Below are positions 2,613 to 23,579 of a stretch of DNA of 33,956 bases, in pieces. Source of the DNA: Actinomycetes bacterium. GTDB lineage: Bacteria > Actinomycetota > Acidimicrobiia > Spongiisociales > UBA5794. Location: the NCBI GenBank assembly GCA_024640745.1, contig JAHEEL010000001.1, positions 1 through 33,956 on the forward strand. The letters run 5' to 3'. Positions within the stretch are counted from its first letter, which is position 1; each line of letters starts with the position of its first letter. The notes beneath the pieces are model-generated. The model worked only from the letters and a program-made list of their open reading frames with translations. It was not told where the DNA came from and did no database searches. The translations under genes were made by a program, and so were the position numbers.

Positions 2613-4418
2613 ATGGACGCCCCACAGCTCGTTGTGATCGGGACGCCGTCGGTCGATCGCATCGAGATACGCGGCGATTCGCTGCCGACCGTTGGTGGAT
2701 CAGGCTTCATCACCGCCGTCGGAGCGCGCCTCGCCGGGATCACGGTGGGACTCGTCGCTCGGGTGCCGCGGCGACTTCCGGACGGCATCGCCGCGGCGTT
2801 CCGACCCGGCGGTATCGACCCCGGTGGCCTCGCCGTGGTCGAAGGACGTCTGCCGGGCTTTCACATCTCCTACGACGAGGCCGAGCGTGCCACCTACTTG
2901 ACGATTGCATCCGGCGAGGAGGCCGACGTGTGCGGCGCCGACCTGCCGCGGCGATGGCTCAATGCCGCATGGATCCACCTCGGCCCGCTGGCCGCGACCA
3001 CGGGCATGCAGATCCGCTTCCTAGAGCAGGTGCTCGACCGCGGCTATCGGGGCGGCCTGTCCGCCGGCACGTTCGGACGCGCCGCCGCCGTGGAGCCGGA
3101 GCTCGTACGAGACCTGTTCACTCGGGTCGACCTCGCTTTCCTCAACCGGGAAGAAGCCGATCGCATCTACCCCGACGGCATGCCAGACGGCCGGACCGTC
3201 TGCGTCACCGACGGAGGCGCCGGGGCGCGCCGCTGGAACGGATCCGAATGGACAACCTATCCGACGACACCAGTCACTCCGTTCGATCCAACGGGTGCAG
3301 GCGACGCGTTCGTCGGCGGCTACCTGGGCGCCATGCTCGACGGCGACTCCGATCCGGTGGGCAACGGACTCCGCACTGCCGCGATCGCCATCGACGGCCC
3401 GGGGGCGGCCCCGCTGGTCGAACAACTGCCACAGCATGCAGCGGTCGTCCCGGAACCGCTCCCCGAAGGCGACCCCGTGGCCGTCGTGGACCGCTCCCGA
3501 ACCGATGCGATCGCCGCCGCGCTCCGAAGCGCTGCAGATGCTGCGGCGCTCGATTTCTGCGGCTTCCCATTCCCCGAGGAGGGAGATCCCGGCGCCATCG
3601 AGACGATGGCCATCGGAACGCTGCACCAGTACGGCTTCTGGGAGGGCACCGATCATGGCTACGGCGGGCCGATGTGGGCGACGATCGACGGGATTCGGCG
3701 GAAGGGCTCCGACTTCATCTGGCATGCGTTCACGAGAGCAACGTCTGCCGATCCGCACATCCTGGACGCGGGCCGTCTTGCCGCCGAGCCGCTGCTCTTC
3801 GATGCGATCTGTACCGACGACGACGGGGTGTGCCCGATCCCGGACGTCGGATCGCACCGGGTGCTCCAGCAGGCGTACGGCGCGGTCATCGGTTCACATG
3901 GCGGAATGCAATCGATCGTCGAGCAGGCAAACGAGGCGGCGGACCCGCTCGCAGCTTTCCTCGATTCGATGGCGGTGGTACCCGGCTTCGGCGAGGATCG
4001 CCTCGCAAAGAAGGCAAACCTTCTGGCGCTGATCCTCGCCAATCGGCCGGAGCGCTTCCTCAGACTGGGCGGTCCAACGGCGATCGCTCCAATCGTCGAC
4101 TACCACATCATGCGAACAACGATGCGGACGGGGTGCGTCTCGATCGTCGACAACGACCTCCGCAACCGTCTTGTTGATCGTGCATGGATCGACGCGGAAC
4201 CCGAAGCCGGGATTCGACTCGCTGCGCGTGACGCCATTTGTGACCTCTGCACGAGCTCCGGTCTCGATGTCGGCAGCGTCGACGGGTTCCTGTTCAGCCT
4301 CGGACGAAGCATCTGCCTCGAGACGGAACCTCCGAAATGTGGTGAATGCCCGCTCGCATTCGCGTGCGCGCAGGAAGTCGAGCTGTTCCAGCCGATCTAT
4401 CGAACAACCGCCTATTGA
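2613..4418 (+). CDS. Fusion protein: N-terminal PfkB/ribokinase-family kinase plus C-terminal QNG1(DUF2419)/HhH-GPD-like N-glycosylase domain with a 4-Cys Fe-S cluster loop
   Basis: PfkB motifs: TVGGSGFITAVGARLAG and DPTGAGDAF (3285..3311). C-terminal half: LHQYGFW, PGFGEDRLAKKANLL (HhH-like), IVDYHIMRT (Asp496 at 4098..4100), C568-x7-C576-x2-C579-x5-C585 (4314..4367), and a C-terminal ...IYRTTAY. Confidence 0.7.
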   Translation: MDAPQLVVIGTPSVDRIEIRGDSLPTVGGSGFITAVGARLAGITVGLVARVPRRLPDGIAAAFRPGGIDPGGLAVVEGRLPGFHISYDEAERATYLTIASGEEADVCGADLPRRWLNAAWIHLGPLAATTGMQIRFLEQVLDRGYRGGLSAGTFGRAAAVEPELVRDLFTRVDLAFLNREEADRIYPDGMPDGRTVCVTDGGAGARRWNGSEWTTYPTTPVTPFDPTGAGDAFVGGYLGAMLDGDSDPVGNGLRTAAIAIDGPGAAPLVEQLPQHAAVVPEPLPEGDPVAVVDRSRTDAIAAALRSAADAAALDFCGFPFPEEGDPGAIETMAIGTLHQYGFWEGTDHGYGGPMWATIDGIRRKGSDFIWHAFTRATSADPHILDAGRLAAEPLLFDAICTDDDGVCPIPDVGSHRVLQQAYGAVIGSHGGMQSIVEQANEAADPLAAFLDSMAVVPGFGEDRLAKKANLLALILANRPERFLRLGGPTAIAPIVDYHIMRTTMRTGCVSIVDNDLRNRLVDRAWIDAEPEAGIRLAARDAICDLCTSSGLDVGSVDGFLFSLGRSICLETEPPKCGECPLAFACAQEVELFQPIYRTTAY

Positions 4419-5466: not shown

Positions 5467-5691
5467 CTATCGGTGCCTCCACACGATGCGACCCTTGGTC
5501 GGGTCGTAGGCCGAAACCTCAACCTCGACCTTGTCGCCGGCGATGATTCGGATCCCGCGACCGCGCCGCATCTTTCCCGATGCTCGCGCAACGATCTCGA
5601 GGCCCGAGTCGAGTCGTACCTTGAACTCAGCGTTCCGGAGCGTCTCGACGACGAGGCCCTGTGTGCGGAATGTGTCGTCGCCTCGTGCCAT
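5467..5691 (-). CDS. infA: Translation initiation factor IF-1 (divergent S1-like OB fold)
   Basis: 74 aa. GKMRRGRGIRIIAGDKVEVEVSAYDPTKGRIVWRHR matches the IF-1 signature GKMR..IRI..GD.V.VE.S.YD...GRI..R. Confidence 0.85.
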   Translation of the reverse strand: MARGDDTFRTQGLVVETLRNAEFKVRLDSGLEIVARASGKMRRGRGIRIIAGDKVEVEVSAYDPTKGRIVWRHR

Positions 5692-5700
5692 GTGGTGGTG

Positions 5701-5946
5701 CTACCGACGGGGACGGGCCTCGTTCACGGTAAGGGCCCGGCCCTCATGCTCGTATCCGTTGAGTTCCTCAATCGCCTTGGTGCCCTCGGCGGCATCCGGC
5801 ATCTCGACGAAGCCGAAACCGCGTGAGCGGCCGGTGTCGCGATCATTGATGATCGCGGCGGAGTCGACGGTGCCGTACTGCGCAAAGAGCGACTCGAGAT
5901 CGGCGTTCGTAGCGCGGAACGAGAGGTTCCCCACAAAGATGTTCAT
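5701..5946 (-). CDS. RRM-type RNA-binding protein (RNP-2 IFVGNL, RNP-1 RGFGFVEM)
   Basis: ATG at 5946 with GGAGG 9 nt upstream. The ORF-track extension to 5997 has no support. 9-nt gap to infA downstream, suggesting an operon. Confidence 0.9.
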   Translation of the reverse strand: MNIFVGNLSFRATNADLESLFAQYGTVDSAAIINDRDTGRSRGFGFVEMPDAAEGTKAIEELNGYEHEGRALTVNEARPRR

Positions 5947-6201
5947 TTCTACTGCCTCCAATGGGCATCGGCTCACGGACCACTGTGGTCCGCACACGGG
6001 CGGGTTCTGTCGACCTGCCTCGAACCAACAAGTGCCACGGCGGCAGCGGACATCCCTCTGTGCACGGGAACAATAGCCTCCCTTCGGTCAACTCGGCGAT
6101 CCAATACCGATGCCGGAAGCGGCGGCAACGCCCAGGCGTGCCCGCCTCAACCTCCCGGACGACCACCCGGCCCGCGCGCGCCCGCCGCTAGCGTCGGGTC
6201 C

Positions 6202-7605: not shown

Positions 7606-9801
7606 GTGAGCGAGTCCACAGCCGCCCCGTCGCCGGAGCCCTCCGGAAGCCTTCGTCGATCGCTGGGCCTCTATGCGGTGCTGACCATCTCGATCGGCGC
7701 CATGATCGGTTCGGGCATCTTCGTGCTGCCCGGCCTTGCGTTCAAGATCGCCGGACCCTCAGTCGTCCTGGCGTTCTTCCTGGCCGGCATCGTCGTGTTG
7801 CCCGCGGCGCTTTCGAAGGCAGAAATGGCCACGGCGATGCCCCAGGCCGGCGGCACCTACCTGTACATCGATCGAGCGATGGGGCCCCTGATGGGGACCA
7901 TCGCCGGCTTTGGGGTGTGGTTCTCGCTCGTGTTCAAAGCATCGTTCGCCCTGGTCGGGCTCTCCGCATACCTCGAGTACTTCGTGCCCCATCCCGAACG
8001 ACCGGTTGCTGCTCTGCTTGCGCTCGTAATGATCGGAGTGAATCTGGTCGGCGTGAAGCAATCTGCCAGATTCCAGATCGTGGTGGTCTCAGGCGTAATC
8101 ATCGTTCTGATCGCATTCGTGGCAATCGGGTTACCGCGTGTCGAGTCGTCGGCCTTCGACCCATTCCTTGCCCATGGCATTCGAGGTCTGCTATCGGCCA
8201 CCGCCGTCGTCTTCGTGTCGTACGCCGGTGTCACGAAGGTGGCCTCGATCGCAGAAGAGGTTCGACGACCTGAGCGCACCATTCCGCGCGGGATGCTGAT
8301 CTCCGTCGGCTTCATGATGCTGCTCTACCCCGCCATCGTGGCCGTGATCGCAGGGGTCGCTCCCGCCGAAGAGCTCGCCACCACCGAAACGCCGATGACG
8401 CTCGCAGCGGAGCAATTCCTCAGCCCGATCGGTGTGGCGCTCACCGCAGGGGTAGCGGTCATCGCCCTGCTGTCCATGACCAACGCCGGGATCATTGCGT
8501 CCTCGCGGTACCCGTTCGCGATGGCTCGCAACTCCCTCGCCCCTCATCAATTTGCAGCAGTCGGACGCCGATCGGGCGGACCAATCATCAGCATCGCCGT
8601 CACCGGTTGTGTTCTCCTCGCGCTCGTCCTCTTCGTCCCACTGATCGAGCTTGCGAAGCTTGCCTCTGCGTTCCAGCTCCTGGTGTTTGCTCTCATCAAT
8701 CTCGCCTTGATCGCATTTCGAGAAGCTCACCTGGACTGGTATTCGCCTGTGTTCAGATCACCCCTGTATCCGGTCACCCAGATCTTCGGGATCGGCTCGG
8801 CGCTCTTGCTCCTCACACAGATGGGAACGATCCCGCTGCTCGGTGCCTTGCTCTTCGTCGTCGCAGGGGCGGTCTGGTATCGGGTCTTCGGCGGGTCGCG
8901 AGCGCCAAAAGATTCGGCGACTCGTGATGCGCTGCGCATGCGAGAGAATGCTCGCCTGGTACAGACCAGCGCGTCGGCCGTCGCCGCCGGCGGGCGCAGG
9001 CACATTCTGGTGCTCGTTCGGCGTCCGACCCGGCCCAGCCGACAGCACACGCTCTTCCGACTGGCATTGCGCCTTGCAGCATCGCCCGGCGGTCGAATCC
9101 ACGTGATCAACTTCGACGCAAGGACTCGGCGGATGATCCCCACCGACGACGATCGAGCCCGGGCCCGAATGCTCGGGATCGAGGTCACAGCCGAGCAGTA
9201 CACGGACGAGGATCGGCGTGGCATGGTCCACGCCTTCGTCGAACGGGAAGGTGTCGACCTCTTCATCGCCGATCTGCCGCAGGAGCTGCGCGCAACCCGC
9301 CATGTCAATCGCGACTTGCGGTGGCTGCGCGAGCACCTCACCTGCGACTCGGTGTTCCTCCGCAACCGCGAGGTCGAGCAGATCGACCGCATCGCAATCC
9401 TCGGAACGGGTGGACCCTACGACCCGGTGAAGATCGAGATGGCCGATCACATTGCGCGCTACGAACACGCCGAGATTCGCTTCGTGCACCTGACACCCGT
9501 CGACACACCGCCGGCTCAAGCCGATTCCATCCACCGATACCACGGTGAGCTCGGCGAGACGCTCACGGTCCCGTGGGACGACCGGGTCCAACCCGCGGAG
9601 CACCTCATCGAGACGCTCACGGGTCTCTCCCGCGGCGCGAATCTCGTCATCCTGGGAGCCCCGACGCACCGATTCCACGTCGTAACGGATCTCGCCGACA
9701 GCATCGCCGAAGCGGTCGATTGCCCCGCTTTGCTCATCCACACACCAACCCTGGAGAAACCCGGCATCGTCAAACGATCGGTCCAGTGGTTGATCGAGTG
9801 A
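7606..9801 (+). CDS. APC-superfamily amino acid permease fused to C-terminal tandem USP-like domains
   Basis: GTG start. About 440 aa of polytopic permease (GAMIGSGIFVLPG motif), then about 280 aa of soluble region with two USP-like repeats (HILVLVRRP...; RIAILGTGGPYD...LVILGAP). Confidence 0.75.
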   Translation: MSESTAAPSPEPSGSLRRSLGLYAVLTISIGAMIGSGIFVLPGLAFKIAGPSVVLAFFLAGIVVLPAALSKAEMATAMPQAGGTYLYIDRAMGPLMGTIAGFGVWFSLVFKASFALVGLSAYLEYFVPHPERPVAALLALVMIGVNLVGVKQSARFQIVVVSGVIIVLIAFVAIGLPRVESSAFDPFLAHGIRGLLSATAVVFVSYAGVTKVASIAEEVRRPERTIPRGMLISVGFMMLLYPAIVAVIAGVAPAEELATTETPMTLAAEQFLSPIGVALTAGVAVIALLSMTNAGIIASSRYPFAMARNSLAPHQFAAVGRRSGGPIISIAVTGCVLLALVLFVPLIELAKLASAFQLLVFALINLALIAFREAHLDWYSPVFRSPLYPVTQIFGIGSALLLLTQMGTIPLLGALLFVVAGAVWYRVFGGSRAPKDSATRDALRMRENARLVQTSASAVAAGGRRHILVLVRRPTRPSRQHTLFRLALRLAASPGGRIHVINFDARTRRMIPTDDDRARARMLGIEVTAEQYTDEDRRGMVHAFVEREGVDLFIADLPQELRATRHVNRDLRWLREHLTCDSVFLRNREVEQIDRIAILGTGGPYDPVKIEMADHIARYEHAEIRFVHLTPVDTPPAQADSIHRYHGELGETLTVPWDDRVQPAEHLIETLTGLSRGANLVILGAPTHRFHVVTDLADSIAEAVDCPALLIHTPTLEKPGIVKRSVQWLIE

Positions 9802-16819: not shown

Positions 16820-18636
16820 GGTGCGCCGTCCTCCGCTCGCCGCGCGGCGTCTTCCTCGTAGGCGCGCAGGAGCCGCTCGTAGCCGGGCTGTGTCGCGAGG
16901 AGCTCCTCGTGCGTGCCGTGAGCGACGACACGTCCCTCGTCCATGAACACGATCTCATCGGTCAGGATGATCGACGACCGCCGGTACGCGACGATCACGA
17001 CCGTCGAGGGAAGCTCCGCACCCTGGAGGCCGCGCAGGATCTCGGTCTCCACCGAAGGATCGACTGCCGACGTCGCATCATCGAGGACGAGAACGCGGGG
17101 ACGCCGCACAAGCGCTCGAGCGAGAGCGATTCGCTGTCGCTGACCGCCGCTCAGCGAGGTGCCGCGCTCACCGATCTGCGTGTCGTAGCCATCCGGCAGT
17201 TCGGTGATGAACCTCTCCACCCCGGCCAGGCGCATGGCACGTAGTACATCCTCGTCGGGGACGTCCGAGCCGAGCGTCACGTTGCCCCACACGGTGTCGT
17301 CGAACAAGAACGACTCCTGCGACACGTAGGCGACCTCGAGCGCGAGCTCCGATCGAGCGAACTGGCGGAGATCGCGCCCGTCGATGTGAATGGCTCCGTC
17401 CGTCGGGTCCCACAGGCGGGCCAGCAGCATCGTCAGCGTCGACTTGCCCGAAGCCGTCGGTCCGACAACCGCCACGGTACGCCCGGCGGGGATCTCAAAC
17501 CGCAGGTCGCTGAGGACCGGTTCGCCGTCTCCGTAGGCGAATTGAACCTCACGGGACTCGAGTTCCGCACCGTCCGGAACGGGGCGAGCCGCGAGGACAC
17601 CGTGATCGATGAGCTCATCGGCATCGAGGATCTCCTGGACCCGAGTCCAGGCCGCCTGGCTGTGCGCCATCTCGAAGATGACGAAGCCGATGAGCTGGAG
17701 GGGGAACGCCATCAGCGTGATGAGATACACGACGGCGACCATCTCGCCCGCGGTCATCGCTGCGTTGATCACGAGCATGGCCGCGGCGACGAGCATCACG
17801 ATGTTGAGCGCCGCCGGTATCGACTCGACGATGGCGCGGAAGTCGGCGAACCGGACGCCGATATCGATCAGTCTCGTCCGGAGCACCTCGGCGGCGATGC
17901 GGAAGCGGGCGACCTCGTACGCCTCACGTCCGAGCGCCTTGACGGTGAGTGCCCCGTCGATGCTCTCGTGGGCGATCTCGCTGACTTTGCCGCGTTCGTA
18001 CTGGGCTTCCTCGAAATCGGCGAACAACGAGAAAGCCCCCCGGATGTCGATGGCCACGAGAATCGACAAGCCGAGAAGAGCGATGACGCCGAGGATCCAG
18101 TGCGTCGCGAAGATGAGGATGATCGTTCCGATGAGCAGTAGCGAGGCGCCCGCTGCGTACGGCAGCGGGGCAAGGACGAACGTGCCGGTCTGCGTGTCCA
18201 CTTCGCTGACCGAGAGCAGGTCGCCGGTGGAACGCCGGTCGTGCCAGGCCAGCTGAAGACGCAGCTGTTGCTCGATCAGCTTTTCGCGAGCGTCCGCCCG
18301 GGTGCGGAACTGCAGGGCGCTGGCAGCCGTCCTCCGCAACGTGATCCCGACGGCCTTCCACAGCGCCACACCCATCACGGCGACGACCGCAACGGCTACC
18401 CGGTTCCCGATCGCTTCGCCGCCGTCGAGGACTGGGATGATCACCAGATCGGTGATCCGCCCAACGACGACCGCCGATGCAACGATCGCCGAAACGAACA
18501 GCGCCGCGCCGAGGACGGCAAGCGTGAAAGACCACGGATGCCACCGGACGAACTGCCGAATCAGCCGCATGCCCCCCGCAACCACTTCACCCAACCGAGC
18601 CGGCGCGGCAGCGTCACGACGAACGGGAGCGGTCAT
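16816..18636 (-). CDS. ABC exporter subunit (fused TMD-NBD), heterodimer partner
   Basis: Walker A GPTASGKST, signature LSGGQRQR, Walker B VLVLDDATSAVD. ATG at 18636 (MTAPVRR...) is preferred over the ORF-track start at 18663. Confidence 0.9.
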   Translation of the reverse strand: MTAPVRRDAAAPARLGEVVAGGMRLIRQFVRWHPWSFTLAVLGAALFVSAIVASAVVVGRITDLVIIPVLDGGEAIGNRVAVAVVAVMGVALWKAVGITLRRTAASALQFRTRADAREKLIEQQLRLQLAWHDRRSTGDLLSVSEVDTQTGTFVLAPLPYAAGASLLLIGTIILIFATHWILGVIALLGLSILVAIDIRGAFSLFADFEEAQYERGKVSEIAHESIDGALTVKALGREAYEVARFRIAAEVLRTRLIDIGVRFADFRAIVESIPAALNIVMLVAAAMLVINAAMTAGEMVAVVYLITLMAFPLQLIGFVIFEMAHSQAAWTRVQEILDADELIDHGVLAARPVPDGAELESREVQFAYGDGEPVLSDLRFEIPAGRTVAVVGPTASGKSTLTMLLARLWDPTDGAIHIDGRDLRQFARSELALEVAYVSQESFLFDDTVWGNVTLGSDVPDEDVLRAMRLAGVERFITELPDGYDTQIGERGTSLSGGQRQRIALARALVRRPRVLVLDDATSAVDPSVETEILRGLQGAELPSTVVIVAYRRSSIILTDEIVFMDEGRVVAHGTHEELLATQPGYERLLRAYEEDAARRAEDGAP

Positions 18637-18809
18637 GACAGAAATGCTAGGAACACACAGCACGCTGCCGTTCGCTGCTCACCGAACTGCTCCGGTTCGC
18701 TACCGCGAATCCCGCCTTTCGACTATCGGCTCGTGGCAGGCAACCGGCGACTCAACCGCTGGACTATGCCACCTCCTTCCACCACAATGGGGGCAACACA
18801 GGAGATGGC

Positions 18810-20363
18810 ATGAACATCGAAGAGCTTCAGGTTCGTGCGCGGGCAATCGTCAACGACCCGCGACTCTCATACCACCAGCGACGCCACTATCTCGCGGGCC
18901 TGGCGGAAGAAGCGCTCGACTACCCGGCCCTGTCAGCCGACGCGGTCGACGCGTTGAACAAGCGAATCATCTGCGACCTGTACGAGGGCCACGCCCCATA
19001 CCGCGGCCGCTATATCCTTCCGGACTACGCGAAAGCGTTGCGCAACGGCTCGACGTTCCTCGAACTCGATCCTCCGGAGACCCTCGACGACGCGCTGAAC
19101 TTCCTTCTCATTCTGTACACGCAGGTGCCGTCGATCACCGGCTACCCCGTCTACCTCGGTGATCTCGACAAGGACCTGGCACCGTACGCCGAGGGTGTTT
19201 CGGACGAGCACCTCTACCAGTCGCTCAAGCGTTTCTGGATCGCCCTGGACCGAATGCTGCCGGACGGGTTCGTTCACATGGACCTGGGTCCGCGCGACGG
19301 TCGCATCATCCGCATGGTGTTTCGGATCGAGCGAGAACTGCTCCAGGTGGTTCCCAACCTCACGTTCAAGGTCGATCCGAACCTCACACCGGACGACCTG
19401 ATCCGGGATGCGGTCGAGACGGTGTTCGAGACCGCGAAGCCGCACTTCGTCAATCACCCCATGATGATCCGCGATTTCGGCGACGACGCCTATGCCTCGG
19501 TCAGCTGCTACAACTCGCTGCGGATCGGTGGCGGCTCCCATACCCTGAACCGCCTGAACCTCAAAGAAGTGGCCCTCGTCCACAACGGCGACACCGAGGC
19601 CTTCTTCGAAGAGACGCTTCCGCACTACGTCGAGCTCAATGCCGAGCTGATCGAAGCGCGCATCCGCTACCTCGTTGAAGACGCGAAGTTCTTCGAGCAC
19701 GACTTCCTCGCCAGGGAAGGCCTCATCTCCCTCGACCGGTTCTCCGCGATGTACGGGGTCTACGGGCTGGCCGAATGCGTGGACACGCTCATGGAGAACG
19801 CCGGCAAGTCGGGCCGCTACGGCCACGACGACGAGGCGAACGAACTGTCGTACCGAATCGTGCGCGCCGTGGCGGATCAAGTCGCTGCCCGGCCGATGCC
19901 GTATTGCGAGGGCAACGGCGGCCGCTGCATGCTGCACTCGCAGTCGGGCATCGACGTCGACGTCGACGTGACGGCGGGGACACGCATCCCGATCGGGTCG
20001 GAACCTTCGATGTTCGAGCACATCGCCTGTGTCGCCCCCCACCACGATGTCTTCATGTCCGGCGTCAGCGACATCTTCCACGTCGAGGACACGGCGCGGC
20101 GGAATCCGCAGGCCGTCGTCGACATCATCCGCGGAGCGTTCGAGGCAGGGATGCGTGACTTCACGTTCAATCTCGACACCAACGGGTTCATCCGTATCAC
20201 CGGATATCTCGTCCGCAAGTCGGACATCGCGGCATTTGCAGATGAGGGAGGCCGGCACGGTTCGACCGTGTTCGCGGCCGGCTCCGTCGAGAACTCCCAT
20301 GTCCTGGATCGTGCGGTGAAGCGCGTCCTGATCCGTGAACACCATACGCGGCCGCCTCAATAA
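18810..20363 (+). CDS. yjjI: YjjI-family (DUF3029-like) short glycyl-radical enzyme
   Basis: 517 aa; E. coli YjjI is about 516 aa from memory. C-terminal FIRITGY with Gly465 at 20202..20204. AGGAG 6 nt upstream of the ATG. Followed immediately by an activase gene. Confidence 0.7.
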   Translation: MNIEELQVRARAIVNDPRLSYHQRRHYLAGLAEEALDYPALSADAVDALNKRIICDLYEGHAPYRGRYILPDYAKALRNGSTFLELDPPETLDDALNFLLILYTQVPSITGYPVYLGDLDKDLAPYAEGVSDEHLYQSLKRFWIALDRMLPDGFVHMDLGPRDGRIIRMVFRIERELLQVVPNLTFKVDPNLTPDDLIRDAVETVFETAKPHFVNHPMMIRDFGDDAYASVSCYNSLRIGGGSHTLNRLNLKEVALVHNGDTEAFFEETLPHYVELNAELIEARIRYLVEDAKFFEHDFLAREGLISLDRFSAMYGVYGLAECVDTLMENAGKSGRYGHDDEANELSYRIVRAVADQVAARPMPYCEGNGGRCMLHSQSGIDVDVDVTAGTRIPIGSEPSMFEHIACVAPHHDVFMSGVSDIFHVEDTARRNPQAVVDIIRGAFEAGMRDFTFNLDTNGFIRITGYLVRKSDIAAFADEGGRHGSTVFAAGSVENSHVLDRAVKRVLIREHHTRPPQ

Positions 20364-21192
20364 GGTCCTCCGTTTCTCGACGGTCGACGGACCCGGCAAT
20401 CGGTTCGTCATCTTCACACAGGGCTGCAACTTCAACTGCGTGAACTGCCACAACCCGTACACGATTGCTGACTGCAACCACTGCGGGCTCTGCGTCGAGT
20501 CGTGCCCCGAGCTTGCGTTGAAGCTCGATCCGGGGCCCCGCGTCGTTGTCGATCGGGCCCGGTGTACCGGCTCCGACGTGTGCATCGAGGTCTGCCCGTT
20601 CGATTCCACGCCCCTCGCCTACGAGGCCACCGTCGCCGAGGTGCTCGAACAGATCCGAGAGACCGCAAAGTTCATCTCCGGCATCACCGTCTCCGGAGGC
20701 GAGGCGACTGAGCAGACCGGCTTTCTCGTTGCTCTGTTCTCGGCGATGAAATCCGACCCGCACCTCGCGCACCTCACGACGTTCGTCGATACCAACGGCT
20801 CGGCGTCGCGCGCGGTGTGGGACCGGCTCGCCCCCGTGATGGATGCGGCGATGGTCGATCTCAAGGCACTCGACGAGACGACCCATATCCGCCTCACCGC
20901 CGCCTCCAATGTCGATGTGCTCGAGTCGATCCGGTACCTCGCGTCCATCGATCGACTCTACGAAGTGCGGCTCTTGATCATGCCCGGATACAACGACGAT
21001 CCGGAGACGGTCGACCACACAGCCGAGTGGCTCCGCTCCGTCGACCCCTCCATGCGAATCGTCGTGATCGGCTTTCGAAGTCATGGCCTCCGGCCCGGAT
21101 TCGAGTACCTCGAGGAGGCAACGCCGGATGCAACACGACAGATCGGCGACCGAATCCAACGATTCGGATTCACGGACGTCGTGGTGGTGTAG
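20335..21192 (+). CDS. yjjW: YjjW-type glycyl-radical enzyme activating protein (radical SAM)
   Basis: DGPGNRFVIFTQGCNFNCVNCHNP (CxxxCxxC), plus two ferredoxin-like clusters CNHCGLCVESCP and CTGSDVCIEVCP. The GTG start overlaps the yjjI-like stop by 29 nt. Confidence 0.85.
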   Translation: MNTIRGRLNKVLRFSTVDGPGNRFVIFTQGCNFNCVNCHNPYTIADCNHCGLCVESCPELALKLDPGPRVVVDRARCTGSDVCIEVCPFDSTPLAYEATVAEVLEQIRETAKFISGITVSGGEATEQTGFLVALFSAMKSDPHLAHLTTFVDTNGSASRAVWDRLAPVMDAAMVDLKALDETTHIRLTAASNVDVLESIRYLASIDRLYEVRLLIMPGYNDDPETVDHTAEWLRSVDPSMRIVVIGFRSHGLRPGFEYLEEATPDATRQIGDRIQRFGFTDVVVV

Positions 21193-21205
21193 CGGTCCCG
21201 GGAGC

Positions 21206-22339
21206 CTACGGGAGCATGATCACGCGGGTGCCGACATCGGCCCACCCGAACGTGAATTCGGCGTCATCGAAGTCCTGCCGTACGCATCCCCCGGATCGCA
21301 ACGTCCCGAGCTGCTCCTTGGTCTGGAGCGGCGACTTGTCCGGGTTGATCGGGATCGAGTGGAAGCCGTACGGCCACTCGTCCCGGGCGAAGCGCACCAT
21401 GAACTCCATGGTGATGCCATCGTAGGGTGCCCACGCGTACCGGGATTTCGAGTAGACGTTGTATCGATCCGGCGTGGGGACGCCGCGCCGGCCCGAGACC
21501 TGATGTGTCTTGGCGAGCTCACCCGTCGCCTCGACGAACCACACCCTGGCTTCCCGATTGGCGTAGATGATCCGGCGACCCGATCCGACGGCGGGATACG
21601 GCAGCGGTGGCTTCTCAGGATGCACCGTGCCGGTCGCCGCCACATACTCCGGCGAATCTGTGAACGCCACCACCAGGCTCCCCCGACTCAGCTCGCCTCT
21701 ATTCAGCAACTCGACGAAGGGAGCGATTCCACCCGCTCCCGGCTCGCGGCCCAGAACGGATTGGTACAGGATCGGGATGAGGGCTTCATCCGACGGATCG
21801 CCGTGGCGGTCGATGAACTCCGTGCTGGTGGTGAACGCCTCCGCGATCGTTGCGAGCGGAAGGCCGTTCCAGTAGCGGCGGGCCCAGTACTCGACCTCGA
21901 GGGAATCAGGCTCGCGCCCAAACAGACCGCAATAGAGCCGCACGACCGAATCGGAGACCGCCCGATCCGTTCGTTGCGGGCCCACGTCACCAAGCGCATT
22001 GGCCGGTGGTGTAGCCGCCGTAGCGGCCGTCACCAACGCGGAGCCGCGCGTGCCTGAAGCCGCCCACAGGCTGGCCTCATCCGGATAGCGGATCGACGCC
22101 ATCGGCATGTCCTCGGCGTCGGGGTCCCCGACGACGATCGCAGGGTCCGCCGCCGGCATCAGGCCGGGGACGAGGACGCCGTGGTCGGCCTCCGAATAGG
22201 TCGAGAACGAACGGCAACCGGCCGCGACAAAGCCGGACGCTGCTTCGGCACGAGGTCCGTCGACGACGATCGCCGAACCAACCACCGCAACAGCTGCCAG
22301 GCAGACGGCGAAGACCCTCACAGGCAACCGATGGTCCAT
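21206..22339 (-). CDS. Secreted L,D-transpeptidase (YkuD domain) with two DUF4214-like repeats
   Basis: Signal-like N-terminus. The repeats are VVRLYCGLFGREPD...STEF and ILYQSVLGREPG...SPEY. The catalytic region is FHSIP...LRSGGCVRQ. Confidence 0.8.
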   Translation of the reverse strand: MDHRLPVRVFAVCLAAVAVVGSAIVVDGPRAEAASGFVAAGCRSFSTYSEADHGVLVPGLMPAADPAIVVGDPDAEDMPMASIRYPDEASLWAASGTRGSALVTAATAATPPANALGDVGPQRTDRAVSDSVVRLYCGLFGREPDSLEVEYWARRYWNGLPLATIAEAFTTSTEFIDRHGDPSDEALIPILYQSVLGREPGAGGIAPFVELLNRGELSRGSLVVAFTDSPEYVAATGTVHPEKPPLPYPAVGSGRRIIYANREARVWFVEATGELAKTHQVSGRRGVPTPDRYNVYSKSRYAWAPYDGITMEFMVRFARDEWPYGFHSIPINPDKSPLQTKEQLGTLRSGGCVRQDFDDAEFTFGWADVGTRVIMLP

Positions 22340-22457
22340 GAACCCCGCAACCTACCCCGGGATGGGCGCAAGGTCGAGGAATCCGCAACCCAGGAGCGAT
22401 ACGTCCCGTAGGGTTGCGGCGGAGATGGCGACCGCGCCGCAGGAGGAGGAATCACCG

Positions 22458-23228
22458 ATGGGCTATCCCAACGGGCTATTCACATGGGCCGACGTAGCAG
22501 TCCCGGACACGCACCGAGGGGCGGCGTTCTACACCGGGCTCTTCGGATGGGAGGCGGTCGAGCCTTCGGCCGGCGATTCCATGCAGTACACCATGTTCAT
22601 GCTCGACGGCGAGGCCGTCGCCGGCATGGGTGCCCTGCATCAGAAGGACATCGACGCCGGCAGGCAGCCCGTGTGGTCGTCGTACATATCGGTCGACGAC
22701 GTCGATGCCACGGCGGCGAAGGCGACAGAACTCGGCGCCACGCTCCTGGCGCAACCGATGGAGATCCCAGGATCGGGGAAGATGCTCATCGCGATCGACC
22801 CGGTCGGCGCAGCGATCAGCTTCTGGCAGGCGGGGGGCCACGATGGCGCCGGGGTGTTCAACGTCCCTGGTGCGATGACGTGGAATGAGCTGGGGTGCCG
22901 CGACGTCGAGTCCGCCAGAGCCTTCTACACCAAGCTGCTCGGCTGGGGATCCGAAGTGCAGCACATTGGCGACTTCTCGTATCTCGTCGTCTCCGTCGGT
23001 GGTCGGCCCAACGCCCGCATCTACGACATGACCGGTATGCGCCCCGACGAGGTTGCCCCGCACTGGTTCGTCTGGTTCGCGGTCGACGACGCGGATAACG
23101 CGGTCGAGCGGGCCCGATCACTCGGCGGAACGATCCAACAGGAGCCGTTCGACACGCCATTCGGCCGCATGGCCGCCATCAGCGACCCCCAAGGGGCACC
23201 CTTCGGCATCGTCGCGTCCAACGAGTAG
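22458..23228 (+). CDS. Two-module VOC (glyoxalase/bleomycin-resistance/dioxygenase) family protein
   Basis: ATG at 22458 is preceded by AGGAGGAGGA (22441..22450). Duplicated modules (FYTGLFGW..., FYTKLLGW...). The ORF-track start at 22338 is rejected. Confidence 0.8.
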   Translation: MGYPNGLFTWADVAVPDTHRGAAFYTGLFGWEAVEPSAGDSMQYTMFMLDGEAVAGMGALHQKDIDAGRQPVWSSYISVDDVDATAAKATELGATLLAQPMEIPGSGKMLIAIDPVGAAISFWQAGGHDGAGVFNVPGAMTWNELGCRDVESARAFYTKLLGWGSEVQHIGDFSYLVVSVGGRPNARIYDMTGMRPDEVAPHWFVWFAVDDADNAVERARSLGGTIQQEPFDTPFGRMAAISDPQGAPFGIVASNE

Positions 23229-23239
23229 GGCGAACGGCC

Positions 23240-23277
23240 AAGACCGAAGGTCTTTGCTCTTTGCTCTTTGCTCTTTG
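23240..23277 (+). terminator. Tight hairpin followed by a CU-rich heptad array (GTCTTTG CTCTTTG CTCTTTG CTCTTTG)
   Basis: AAGACC (23240..23245), GAA loop, GGTCTT (23249..23254), then four 7-nt units at 23250..23277. Starts 12 nt after the VOC stop codon. Confidence 0.4.
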
Positions 23278-23336
23278 CCCCTAGTCACCGCGGCGAATCG
23301 TCGTCACAATTGACCTAGGCAACCTGGAGGAGTCTC

Positions 23337-23579
23337 GTGCAGAAGGACATCACCATCGACGTACACATCGAGGAAGACGAGACTACGACCACGGTCCGGA
23401 CGGTCCTCGATCTGAGGGGCGATCATTTCGAATCGCGGGGCCGAGCGCGAAGGAACCCGATCGACGAGCCCATGCCGGTCGTTGGTGAGGAGTTGGCGCT
23501 GGCCCGGGCTCTGAACGGCCTCCAGATGGAGGTCATGGAAGCCGCCCAGGACAAGATCGCCCGGTTCCTGACGGTCTGA
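23337..23579 (+). CDS. DUF1876 domain protein (Rv2632c-like)
   Basis: GTG start with GGAGGAG upstream. DVHIEEDETTT...GRARRNPIDEPMPVVGEELALARAL resembles the mycobacterial DUF1876 pattern. Confidence 0.7.
   Translation: MQKDITIDVHIEEDETTTTVRTVLDLRGDHFESRGRARRNPIDEPMPVVGEELALARALNGLQMEVMEAAQDKIARFLTV

Follow-up and report, generated by a model that had tools for sequence, protein, structure and literature searches.

A YjjI/YjjW-family glycyl-radical module in an Acidimicrobiaceae-like actinobacterium

Introduction

YjjI and its activase YjjW constitute one of the few glycyl-radical enzyme (GRE) families present in Escherichia coli K-12 itself to which no substrate has been assigned. Full-text searches of the literature up to August 2026 for YjjI, YjjW, DUF3029 and HI0521 returned expression data only and no assigned function: papers on a LysR regulator, on an RNA-chaperone screen and on Haemophilus mention yjjI/yjjW incidentally, and a paper of August 2026 still refers to YjjI as an uncharacterised putative GRE. 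A review of the GREs published in June 2026, which was not among the full-text matches for 'YjjI', points out that entire clades of these enzymes still await validation. Here we describe a YjjI/YjjW pair encoded in a stretch of 33,956 nucleotides (hereafter the window) from contig JAHEEL010000001.1 of an Actinomycetes bacterium. An earlier note on this DNA, made from the sequence alone, had recognised an orphan short GRE of the YjjI type with a dedicated YjjW-type activase, and had stated that the family has no assigned substrate, a point on which the searchable literature agrees.

Results and discussion

The window encodes a YjjI/YjjW pair

We consider it likely that two genes of the window form a functional glycyl-radical module of YjjI/YjjW type, that its host is an Acidimicrobiaceae-like actinobacterium and that the radical is relayed from Gly465 to Cys233 of the YjjI protein. 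The 517-aa protein scored 696.8 bits with NCBIfam TIGR04040 (glycyl_YjjI; curated cutoff 498.3), over positions 3-497 of the 497 in the model, and 660.9 bits with Pfam PF11230 (YjjI-like, formerly DUF3029; cutoff 23; E = 1e-198; model positions 1-484 of 485). The adjoining 285-aa protein matched TIGR04041 (activase_YjjW) at 316 bits (curated cutoff 250.2), together with PF04055 and the Fer4 domains of Pfam, and falls into subfamily TIGR02494, as PflA does. All three family models were thus matched above cutoff, the two NCBIfam models being curated at the equivalog level. Since the E. coli pair also aligns end to end with that of the window, the identity proposed in the earlier note is upheld.

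Comparison with the E. coli K-12 proteins (YjjI, b4380; YjjW, b4379) gave full-length identities of 47% for YjjI and 41% for YjjW. The lengths are nearly equal (516 aa in E. coli against 517 aa here for YjjI, and 287 aa against 285 aa for YjjW; the earlier note had given the E. coli values correctly), the gene order is the same, the glycine is also numbered Gly465 and the S-C-Y-N Cys loop is shared. The two pairs differ in clade, in that the YjjI of the window groups with Acidimicrobiia and scattered members of other phyla at 62-94% identity. They differ too in the activase, Ser80 in its ferredoxin motif 2 being a Cys in E. coli YjjW, and in their neighbours, which are deoCABD in E. coli and an ABC exporter pair in the window. 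On the E. coli side, yjjI is activated by FNR. The pair is an ordinary member of an already catalogued, functionally uncharacterised family. Indeed, many of the closest homologues, from Acidimicrobiia, are already publicly labelled 'YjjI family glycine radical enzyme'; an exact-sequence look-up found no record of this particular 517-aa protein in public assemblies. The pair will not surprise a specialist, and it opens the substrate question no further than E. coli does.

The coordinates of both open reading frames (ORFs) and of their overlap were borne out to the base (Table 1). The GC content at third codon positions (GC3) is 0.83 for yjjI and 0.82 for yjjW, values that are usual for the real genes of the window, the GC content of which is 65%. 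When the genes were compared with those of four relatives at synonymous divergences (dS) of 0.7-1.0, the ratio of nonsynonymous to synonymous substitution (dN/dS) was 0.05-0.09 for yjjI and 0.09-0.19 for yjjW. Both genes are held by strong purifying selection, the Ser80 change notwithstanding.

The 29-nt overlap is identical in E. coli K-12 and is found in 27 of 54 loci overall, the remaining loci having mostly overlaps of 26, 20 or 4 nt. This form (9516..9544 in locus L001 of our neighbourhood set) is common to Acidimicrobiia, other Actinomycetota and E. coli. Such an arrangement suggests that translation of the two genes is coupled and, because the overlap with yjjW is shared, the conserved C-terminal tail of YjjI (R501, R505-V506 and E510) may be constrained by dual coding.

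The predicted radical residues are conserved and lie at the tips of modelled hairpins

The earlier note had read an R-[IV]-x-G-[FYW] fingerprint, within FIRITGY, around Gly465, and had offered Cys233 as one option for the thiyl-loop cysteine. Both codons were found at the positions claimed when the sequence was re-read. The peptide GFIRITGYLVRKS is present and contains the core motif R462-I-T-G465-Y466, and SVSCYNSL contains the Cys loop S232-C233-Y234-N235. Residue conservation was assessed over 374 full-length homologues from three clades, which are 23-92% identical to the window protein. Gly465 and Arg462 are each kept in 99.7% of these, Cys233 in 99.5%, Ser232 in 99.2% and Asn235 in 98.7%; the R[IV]xG[FWY] core occurs in 371 members and SCYN in 368. 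The positions kept in at least 98.7% of the set comprise, besides Gly465, Cys233 and Arg462, the residues Arg67, Arg248, Arg392, Glu59, Asp120, Asp147, His156, Asn183, Glu303, His376, Gln378 and Asp384. No second cysteine is universal among the 374 homologues, Cys55 being conserved in 90%. A diverse 20-member alignment, reaching down to 31% identity, contains 30 invariant positions, all of which are retained by the window protein. These include S232, C233, N235, R462 and G465, as well as a polar set made up of E59, R67, Y68, D120, D147, H156, N183, R248, E303, H376, Q378, D384 and R392. Overall, some 30 near-invariant polar residues would define a distinctive YjjI pocket.

Alignments to characterised GREs point to the same two residues. 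A search of the family profile against the sequences of the PDB paired S232-C233 with C418-C419 of pyruvate formate-lyase (PFL) and RITG465Y with the RVSG734Y of PFL, and hhalign placed Cys233 onto Cys384, the thiyl cysteine of E. coli NrdD. Cys233, being both conserved and aligned with PFL Cys419 and NrdD Cys384, is thus the predicted thiyl-loop cysteine, and the tentative choice of the earlier note is supported. The profile search gave a best E value of 0.0017 and found no solved structure of the YjjI family.

An AlphaFold2 model of the 517-aa protein, built from 62 sequences, reached a predicted local distance difference test score (pLDDT) of 90.7 and a predicted template-modelling score (pTM) of 0.90. 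In this model, Cys233 forms the tip of a β-hairpin (E228-232/E235-238), as does Gly465 (E460-463/E466-469). According to the June 2026 review, an architecture with two 'finger loops' defines the GREs, and the model identifies the Cys233 and Gly465 hairpins as these loops. The earlier note had proposed structure prediction as a check on whether the Gly465 loop is brought against a Cys loop; what the model supplies is a confident GRE-type fold with both residues at predicted hairpin tips. Foldseek searches agreed with the fold class, in that the top 50 matches were all GREs. The best of these were the class III ribonucleotide reductases (RNRs) of Prevotella copri, Streptococcus thermophilus and phage T4, with E values down to 2.5e-18 and template-modelling (TM) scores up to 0.77 at 13-15% identity. 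They were followed by PflD, YbiW, HypD, PFL and other GREs.

YjjI is distinct from the RNR, PFL and C-x-E classes

The structural matches make it necessary to consider whether the pair represents a minimal, divergent class III RNR (NrdD) with an NrdG-type activase, dedicated to O2-free synthesis of deoxyribonucleotides. NrdD is the closest solved fold to YjjI. Both have a C-terminal glycyl-radical hairpin with nothing beyond a short RxxGY core, and the 517-aa protein has a secondary Pfam match to PF13597 NRDD (E = 1e-10); in the hhalign alignment its residues 16-361, including Cys233, span residues 120-532 of E. coli NrdD. However, NrdD models scored only 17-23 bits against cutoffs of 326-764 (TIGR02487, 23.3 bits against 326). 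The second catalytic Cys of NrdD (C175 in E. coli) lands in a two-residue gap of the alignment, and C55, at 90%, is not a universal substitute. No cysteine occurs past residue 407, so that the C-terminal Zn-Cys4 site of NrdD is absent, and a Pfam scan detected no ATP-cone domain in the protein. The activase, moreover, matches models of the PFL-activating-enzyme (PFL-AE) type, with a ferredoxin insert, and reaches only 44 bits with the NrdG model TIGR02491 (cutoff 126). E. coli, for its part, has nrdDG besides yjjIW. The missing second catalytic Cys, Zn site and ATP cone, together with the failure of the NrdD and NrdG models to reach cutoff, largely refute a class III RNR identity, which we regard as very improbable.

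Sequence-level comparisons lead in a different direction, towards a short pyruvate or 2-ketoacid formate-lyase. Formate acetyltransferases were the best PDB matches near the Cys loop (E 0.002-0.008), the profile aligning with PflB both there (YgiaSCYN against YAIACCVS) and at the Gly loop (RvtGY against RVSGY). Some YjjI homologues have faint precomputed matches to PF02901, and the activase resembles PFL-AE (TIGR02493, 123 bits). The Haemophilus orthologue HI0521 was historically annotated as 'pflB homolog'. Against this, the PFL-AE score is under the cutoff of 231.75, PF02901 is not matched by the window protein, and the latter has 517 aa as compared with about 760 aa for PFL (PflB being some 240 residues longer than YjjI). 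PflA also differs in being without the ferredoxin-like domain that most YjjW proteins carry. Above all, PFL chemistry requires both Cys418 and Cys419, and 99% of YjjI proteins have a Ser where PFL has Cys418. Since the June 2026 review finds a two-Cys loop in PFL and TdcE only, the presence of Ser232 in place of Cys418 rules out a PFL/TdcE identity, and there is next to no likelihood left for a formate-lyase of this kind.

The third group comprises the 1,2-eliminases and isomerases, which according to the same review keep a C-x-E motif, the Glu of which touches the substrate. YjjI shares with them a single-Cys Cys loop and the barrel fold, and the 8-Cys activases of CutC, glycerol/propanediol dehydratase, HypD, IslA and YbiW/PflD have the same layout as YjjW, with a radical S-adenosylmethionine (SAM) domain and a ferredoxin-like insert. 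In contrast, these eliminases and isomerases are about 790-850 aa long and some are encoded in bacterial-microcompartment loci, whereas YjjI proteins have about 500-520 aa and no conserved neighbours. A C-x-E-type identity is ruled out by the C-Y-N Cys loop, which is found in 368 of the 374 members. The comparison therefore narrows the nature of YjjI: because the RNR, PFL and C-x-E classes are ruled out, it is a distinct GRE lineage, with a fold nearest to that of NrdD and an active-site signature of its own.

The YjjW activase has a labile ferredoxin insert

The activase contains GCNFNCVNCHNP, the radical-SAM motif CX3CX2C (C31/C35/C38) that the earlier note had pointed to. This motif is invariant in the orthologue alignment (A6), as are D18-G-P-G-N-R23 and G121-G-E123. 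The two ferredoxin-type clusters also claimed for the protein stood up only in part: the first motif is complete, but the second has Ser80 in place of a Cys, leaving seven of the eight auxiliary cysteines. The Ser80 codon, TCC, is a Cys codon (TGC or TGT) in the three closest relatives, making the change unique among the four closest genomes; relative to the nearest of them (L005) it amounts to a single G-to-C substitution at 20573.

The insert was then compared across 59 mainly actinobacterial orthologues, the window's included. Both ferredoxin motifs are complete (8 Cys) in 16 of these, while six, among them the activase of the window, have a complete first motif and a second motif without its second Cys (7 Cys). 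Four have the first motif alone. In the other 33, including that of a complete Dactylosporangium chromosome, the whole insert of about 45 residues has been cleanly deleted. An eight-Cys ferredoxin insert, such as E. coli YjjW and most GRE activases have, is thus not strictly defining for the YjjW family. Since all of these forms, the insert-less ones among them, have kept a highly conserved YjjI as their partner, the ferredoxin-like domain appears to be dispensable, and its loss would be no sign of decay. According to the June 2026 review, a ferredoxin-like domain is found in most GRE activases and its function is not known. The YjjW family offers a natural deletion series of this auxiliary domain, which has thus been evolutionarily labile among the orthologues of one family.

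These observations bear on a further alternative, namely that what this lineage carries is a relic, decaying or non-catalytic, in a host that may be aerobic. The loss of an auxiliary-cluster ligand through the Cys80-to-Ser change, in the window alone among the four closest genomes, would fit with this, as would the many actinobacterial orthologues in which the ferredoxin domain is degenerate or gone. However, both ORFs are intact, with dN/dS values of 0.05-0.19 over the whole dS range given above. The roughly 30 family-invariant residues of YjjI and the radical-SAM and SAM-binding motifs of the activase are all retained, and the continued pairing of insert-less YjjW with conserved YjjI speaks against reading loss of the domain as decay. 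We give the relic explanation hardly any credence and retain that of a functional module.

The module is resident in its lineage and YjjW is its only conserved partner

The nearest YjjI relatives, at 85-94% identity, come from Acidimicrobiaceae, Acidimicrobiia and unclassified Actinomycetota metagenome-assembled genomes (MAGs), in keeping with the high-GC actinobacterial host that had been proposed. In these nearest relatives, too, the module is flanked by the ABC exporter pair and by the gene for a DUF4214-YkuD protein. Because these flanking genes are shared, the module is resident in the lineage and does not represent a recent island. Acquisition as a horizontal-transfer island was indeed considered and rejected: GC content and GC3 are as in the neighbouring genes, and the synteny is common to related MAGs. 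Among the wider carriers of the family are Ilumatobacteraceae, Nocardioides, Dactylosporangium and Planomonospora, as well as candidate Nanopelagicales, Trueperaceae and proteobacterial MAGs, Enterobacterales and many strict anaerobes, including Clostridia, Erysipelotrichaceae and Fusobacteriota. The family is compact: clustering of 1.84 billion proteins at 50% leaves it with only about 20 representatives of full length.

Neighbourhoods were clustered for 82 sequences (the window and L001-L081; 1133 ORFs), 74 of which had a called yjjI. Across these 74 loci, most of them from Actinomycetota, with E. coli in addition, YjjW was the sole conserved neighbour of yjjI; in 54 of them it occupies position +1, on the strand of yjjI. 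Six more neighbourhoods, from Bacillota, Fusobacteriota and one actinomycete-like genome, revealed no common partner besides YjjW. The description of the module as an orphan in the earlier note is therefore apt. Recurrent helicases, a DtxR-type regulator and ABC ATPases were examined as possible partners and rejected as lineage-specific synteny. The adjacent ABC exporter pair was rejected likewise, being generic, matching no NCBIfam model above cutoff and being retained only in the closest relatives.

Sequences upstream of yjjI and reported expression

A promoter-like element lies upstream of yjjI (Table 1). Eight related loci show the pattern CTGGAC ... CACAATGGG at an unchanged distance from the start codon; six of them have AGGAG, and the two most distant GGAGG. 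From its position and recurrence, we infer that CTGGAC-N18-CACAAT may be the yjjI promoter. Scans of 18500..21500 for strict sigma-70 consensus promoters and for terminators returned nothing, this element included. In some of the relatives (L007 and L008), a partial inverted repeat (GTCC) follows CTGGAC and might serve as an operator.

Expression of the family has been reported for enterobacteria. E. coli yjjI is listed among the operons directly activated by FNR, its expression clusters with that of nitrate-respiration genes, and one RNA-seq table places it among anaerobic respiratory and fermentative genes; the yjjI/yjjW pair of Yersinia is induced anaerobically. In the fusobacterium Haliovirga abyssi, yjjI is transcribed divergently from the gene for a regulator of the Crp/FNR family (cNMP_binding, 223 aa; L089 6227..6898), an arrangement that fits the FNR control reported in E. 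coli.

A model for the module and its substrate

From what is established of GRE enzymology, YjjW would bind SAM on a [4Fe-4S] cluster held by C31/C35/C38 and cleave it reductively to a 5'-deoxyadenosyl radical, which would in turn take a hydrogen from Gly465 of YjjI to leave a stable, O2-sensitive glycyl radical. In each turnover the Gly465 radical would pass to Cys233 on the opposing finger loop, and the resulting thiyl radical would abstract a hydrogen from the substrate. We infer that such a radical could form in the host organism; Gly465 of E. coli YjjI has been labelled in vivo by a radical-trapping probe. It is probable that the two genes share a transcript, that their translation is coupled via the conserved overlap and that, by analogy with E. 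coli, they are used under oxygen limitation.

The nature of the substrate is a matter for cautious speculation. A doubtful but specific guess would be an anionic metabolite, small, ubiquitous and probably phosphorylated, that undergoes redox-neutral cleavage or rearrangement. It might be held in the NrdD-like barrel by the near-invariant Arg67, Arg248 and Arg392 and by the G241-G242 loop. A common anionic metabolite is suggested because of this Arg trio and the GG loop that follows the Cys loop, because of the barrel itself, and because no transporter, reductant or downstream enzyme travels with the module in the phyla examined, which points to a common intracellular compound. A redox-neutral reaction is favoured over a reduction because there is neither a second conserved Cys nor a conserved gene for a reductant or accessory protein.

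It is conceivable that YjjI is a genuine GRE of its own type and yet carries out reductive chemistry, with formate or another diffusible reductant. The nearest fold relatives of YjjI are reductases, the reported co-clustering of E. coli yjjI with nitrate-respiration genes and its listing with anaerobic respiratory and fermentative genes would suit such a role, and nothing in the sequence speaks against a diffusible reductant. However, a second conserved cysteine to carry the reducing equivalents is absent from the 374 homologues, and in none of the phyla examined is a gene for a formate transporter, a thioredoxin or a ferredoxin a conserved neighbour, although both are arguments from absence. 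We think a reductive reaction unlikely, and prefer the redox-neutral one.

Several observations weigh against the model as a whole or in part. Not one of the 374 members, and hence not the window protein, matches the extended fingerprint of the glycyl radical domain (GRD) given in the June 2026 review, RVxG[FWY]x6-8[FL]x4Qx2[IV]x2R; only its R[IV]xG[FWY] core survives in the family. NrdD, likewise, is not known to have more than the core motif. The second auxiliary-cluster motif of the activase has undergone a Cys-to-Ser change. The paper that reported probe labelling of E. coli YjjI itself states that the glycyl radical was not directly observed. With respect to regulation, inspection of the 146 bp upstream of yjjI showed no palindrome of the FNR or CRP type, and a search of the window for DosR boxes gave a single match, at chance level and inside an ABC transporter gene, with none upstream of yjjI. 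With respect to the substrate, the invariant Arg and Gly residues and the fold resemblance are the whole basis of the guess, and the genomic context backs no particular substrate.

What the module would mean for its hosts can be stated only tentatively. The S-C-Y-N loop and the truncated glycyl-radical domain match no characterised GRE class, and a new type of GRE reaction can be envisaged. It is possible, if on balance rather less likely than otherwise, that the several strands of this work combine as follows: YjjI catalyses a reaction of an undescribed type on a ubiquitous, probably phosphorylated central metabolite; the module serves as a stand-alone aid to survival of anoxia in nominally aerobic Actinomycetota (Acidimicrobiia, Dactylosporangium, Planomonospora and Nocardioides); and the YjjW series of 8-Cys, 7-Cys, 4-Cys and insert-less forms shows the ferredoxin-like domain to be dispensable for activation. 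The module occurs in actinomycetes known as aerobes, which may be a sign of anaerobic capacities hidden in these groups. Among the by-products of the analysis, the most useful are the class assignments that proved negative, the catalogue of invariant residues and the activase ferredoxin deletion series.

Other features of the window

Table 1. Features of the yjjI/yjjW locus and its immediate neighbours, in window coordinates
Feature	Position	Strand	Basis or remark
Promoter-like element: CTGGAC 18759..18764, 18-nt spacer, CACAAT 18783..18788	18759..18788	+	inferred
Shine-Dalgarno-like AGGAG, 5 nt before the yjjI ATG	18800..18804	+	read from sequence
yjjI-like gene, 517-aa glycyl-radical enzyme	18810..20363	+	profile matches, E. 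coli likeness, AlphaFold model, dN/dS
Cys233 codon, predicted thiyl-radical cysteine, S-C-Y-N Cys loop	19506..19508	+	conservation, alignments, model
Gly465 codon GGA, predicted glycyl-radical site, R-I-T-G-Y	20202..20204	+	conservation, alignments, model
yjjI/yjjW overlap, 29 nt, out of frame	20335..20363	+	ORF coordinates
yjjW-like gene, 285-aa radical-SAM GRE activase, GTG start	20335..21192	+	TIGR04041, PF04055, Fer4 domains
Radical-SAM cluster motif C31-x3-C35-x2-C38 (CNFNCVNC)	20425..20448	+	invariant in alignment A6
Ferredoxin-type motif 1, complete, C47-x2-C50-x2-C53-x3-C57 (CX2CX2CX3C)	20473..20505	+	
Ferredoxin-type motif 2, incomplete, C77-x2-S80-x2-C83-x3-C87-P	20563..20598	+	Ser80 codon TCC 20572..20574
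DUF4214 + YkuD (L,D-transpeptidase) protein	21206..22339	-	converges on yjjW
Two-glyoxalase-domain protein	22338..23228	+	resembles AfsK-binding KbpA, 135 bits, below cutoff 250

The module is flanked by a divergent gene pair for a heterodimeric ABC exporter and by the convergent gene for the DUF4214-YkuD protein; its other neighbours encode the protein with two glyoxalase domains, a two-component system and an ABC-2 transporter. No neighbour in the window is linked to yjjI beyond the closest relatives. The earlier note had described the setting as one of aerobic-looking housekeeping genes. Nothing in the window shows the genes to be of that kind. Genes for a B12-binding radical-SAM protein and an Rv2632c-like protein are found nearby.

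The Rv2632c-like ORF (PF08962, 69 bits against a cutoff of 25; 80 aa; 23337..23579, + strand) follows yjjW at a distance of 2.1 kb and keeps this place in the closest relatives only. Members of this family belong to the DosR hypoxia/dormancy regulon of Mycobacterium tuberculosis. Just upstream of the ORF, the intergenic sequence contains a perfect tandem repeat of four TCTTTGC units (23251..23278). The B12-binding radical-SAM protein (PF02310 + PF04055; 22..1368, - strand) has BchE and HpnJ as its best NCBIfam matches, far below their cutoffs, which makes it, after YjjI, the second radical enzyme of the window without an assignment.

The gene next to that for translation initiation factor IF-1 (5467..5691, - strand) encodes a 98-aa protein (5701..5997, - strand) whose RNA recognition motif is of the eukaryote type (PF00076 RRM_1, 75 bits). 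Two other proteins bear long extensions that lack an assignment. A 601-aa protein (2613..4418, + strand) matches PfkB sugar kinases over residues 27-265 only, and the last 320 or so residues of a 731-aa amino-acid permease (7606..9801, + strand) match no Pfam family.

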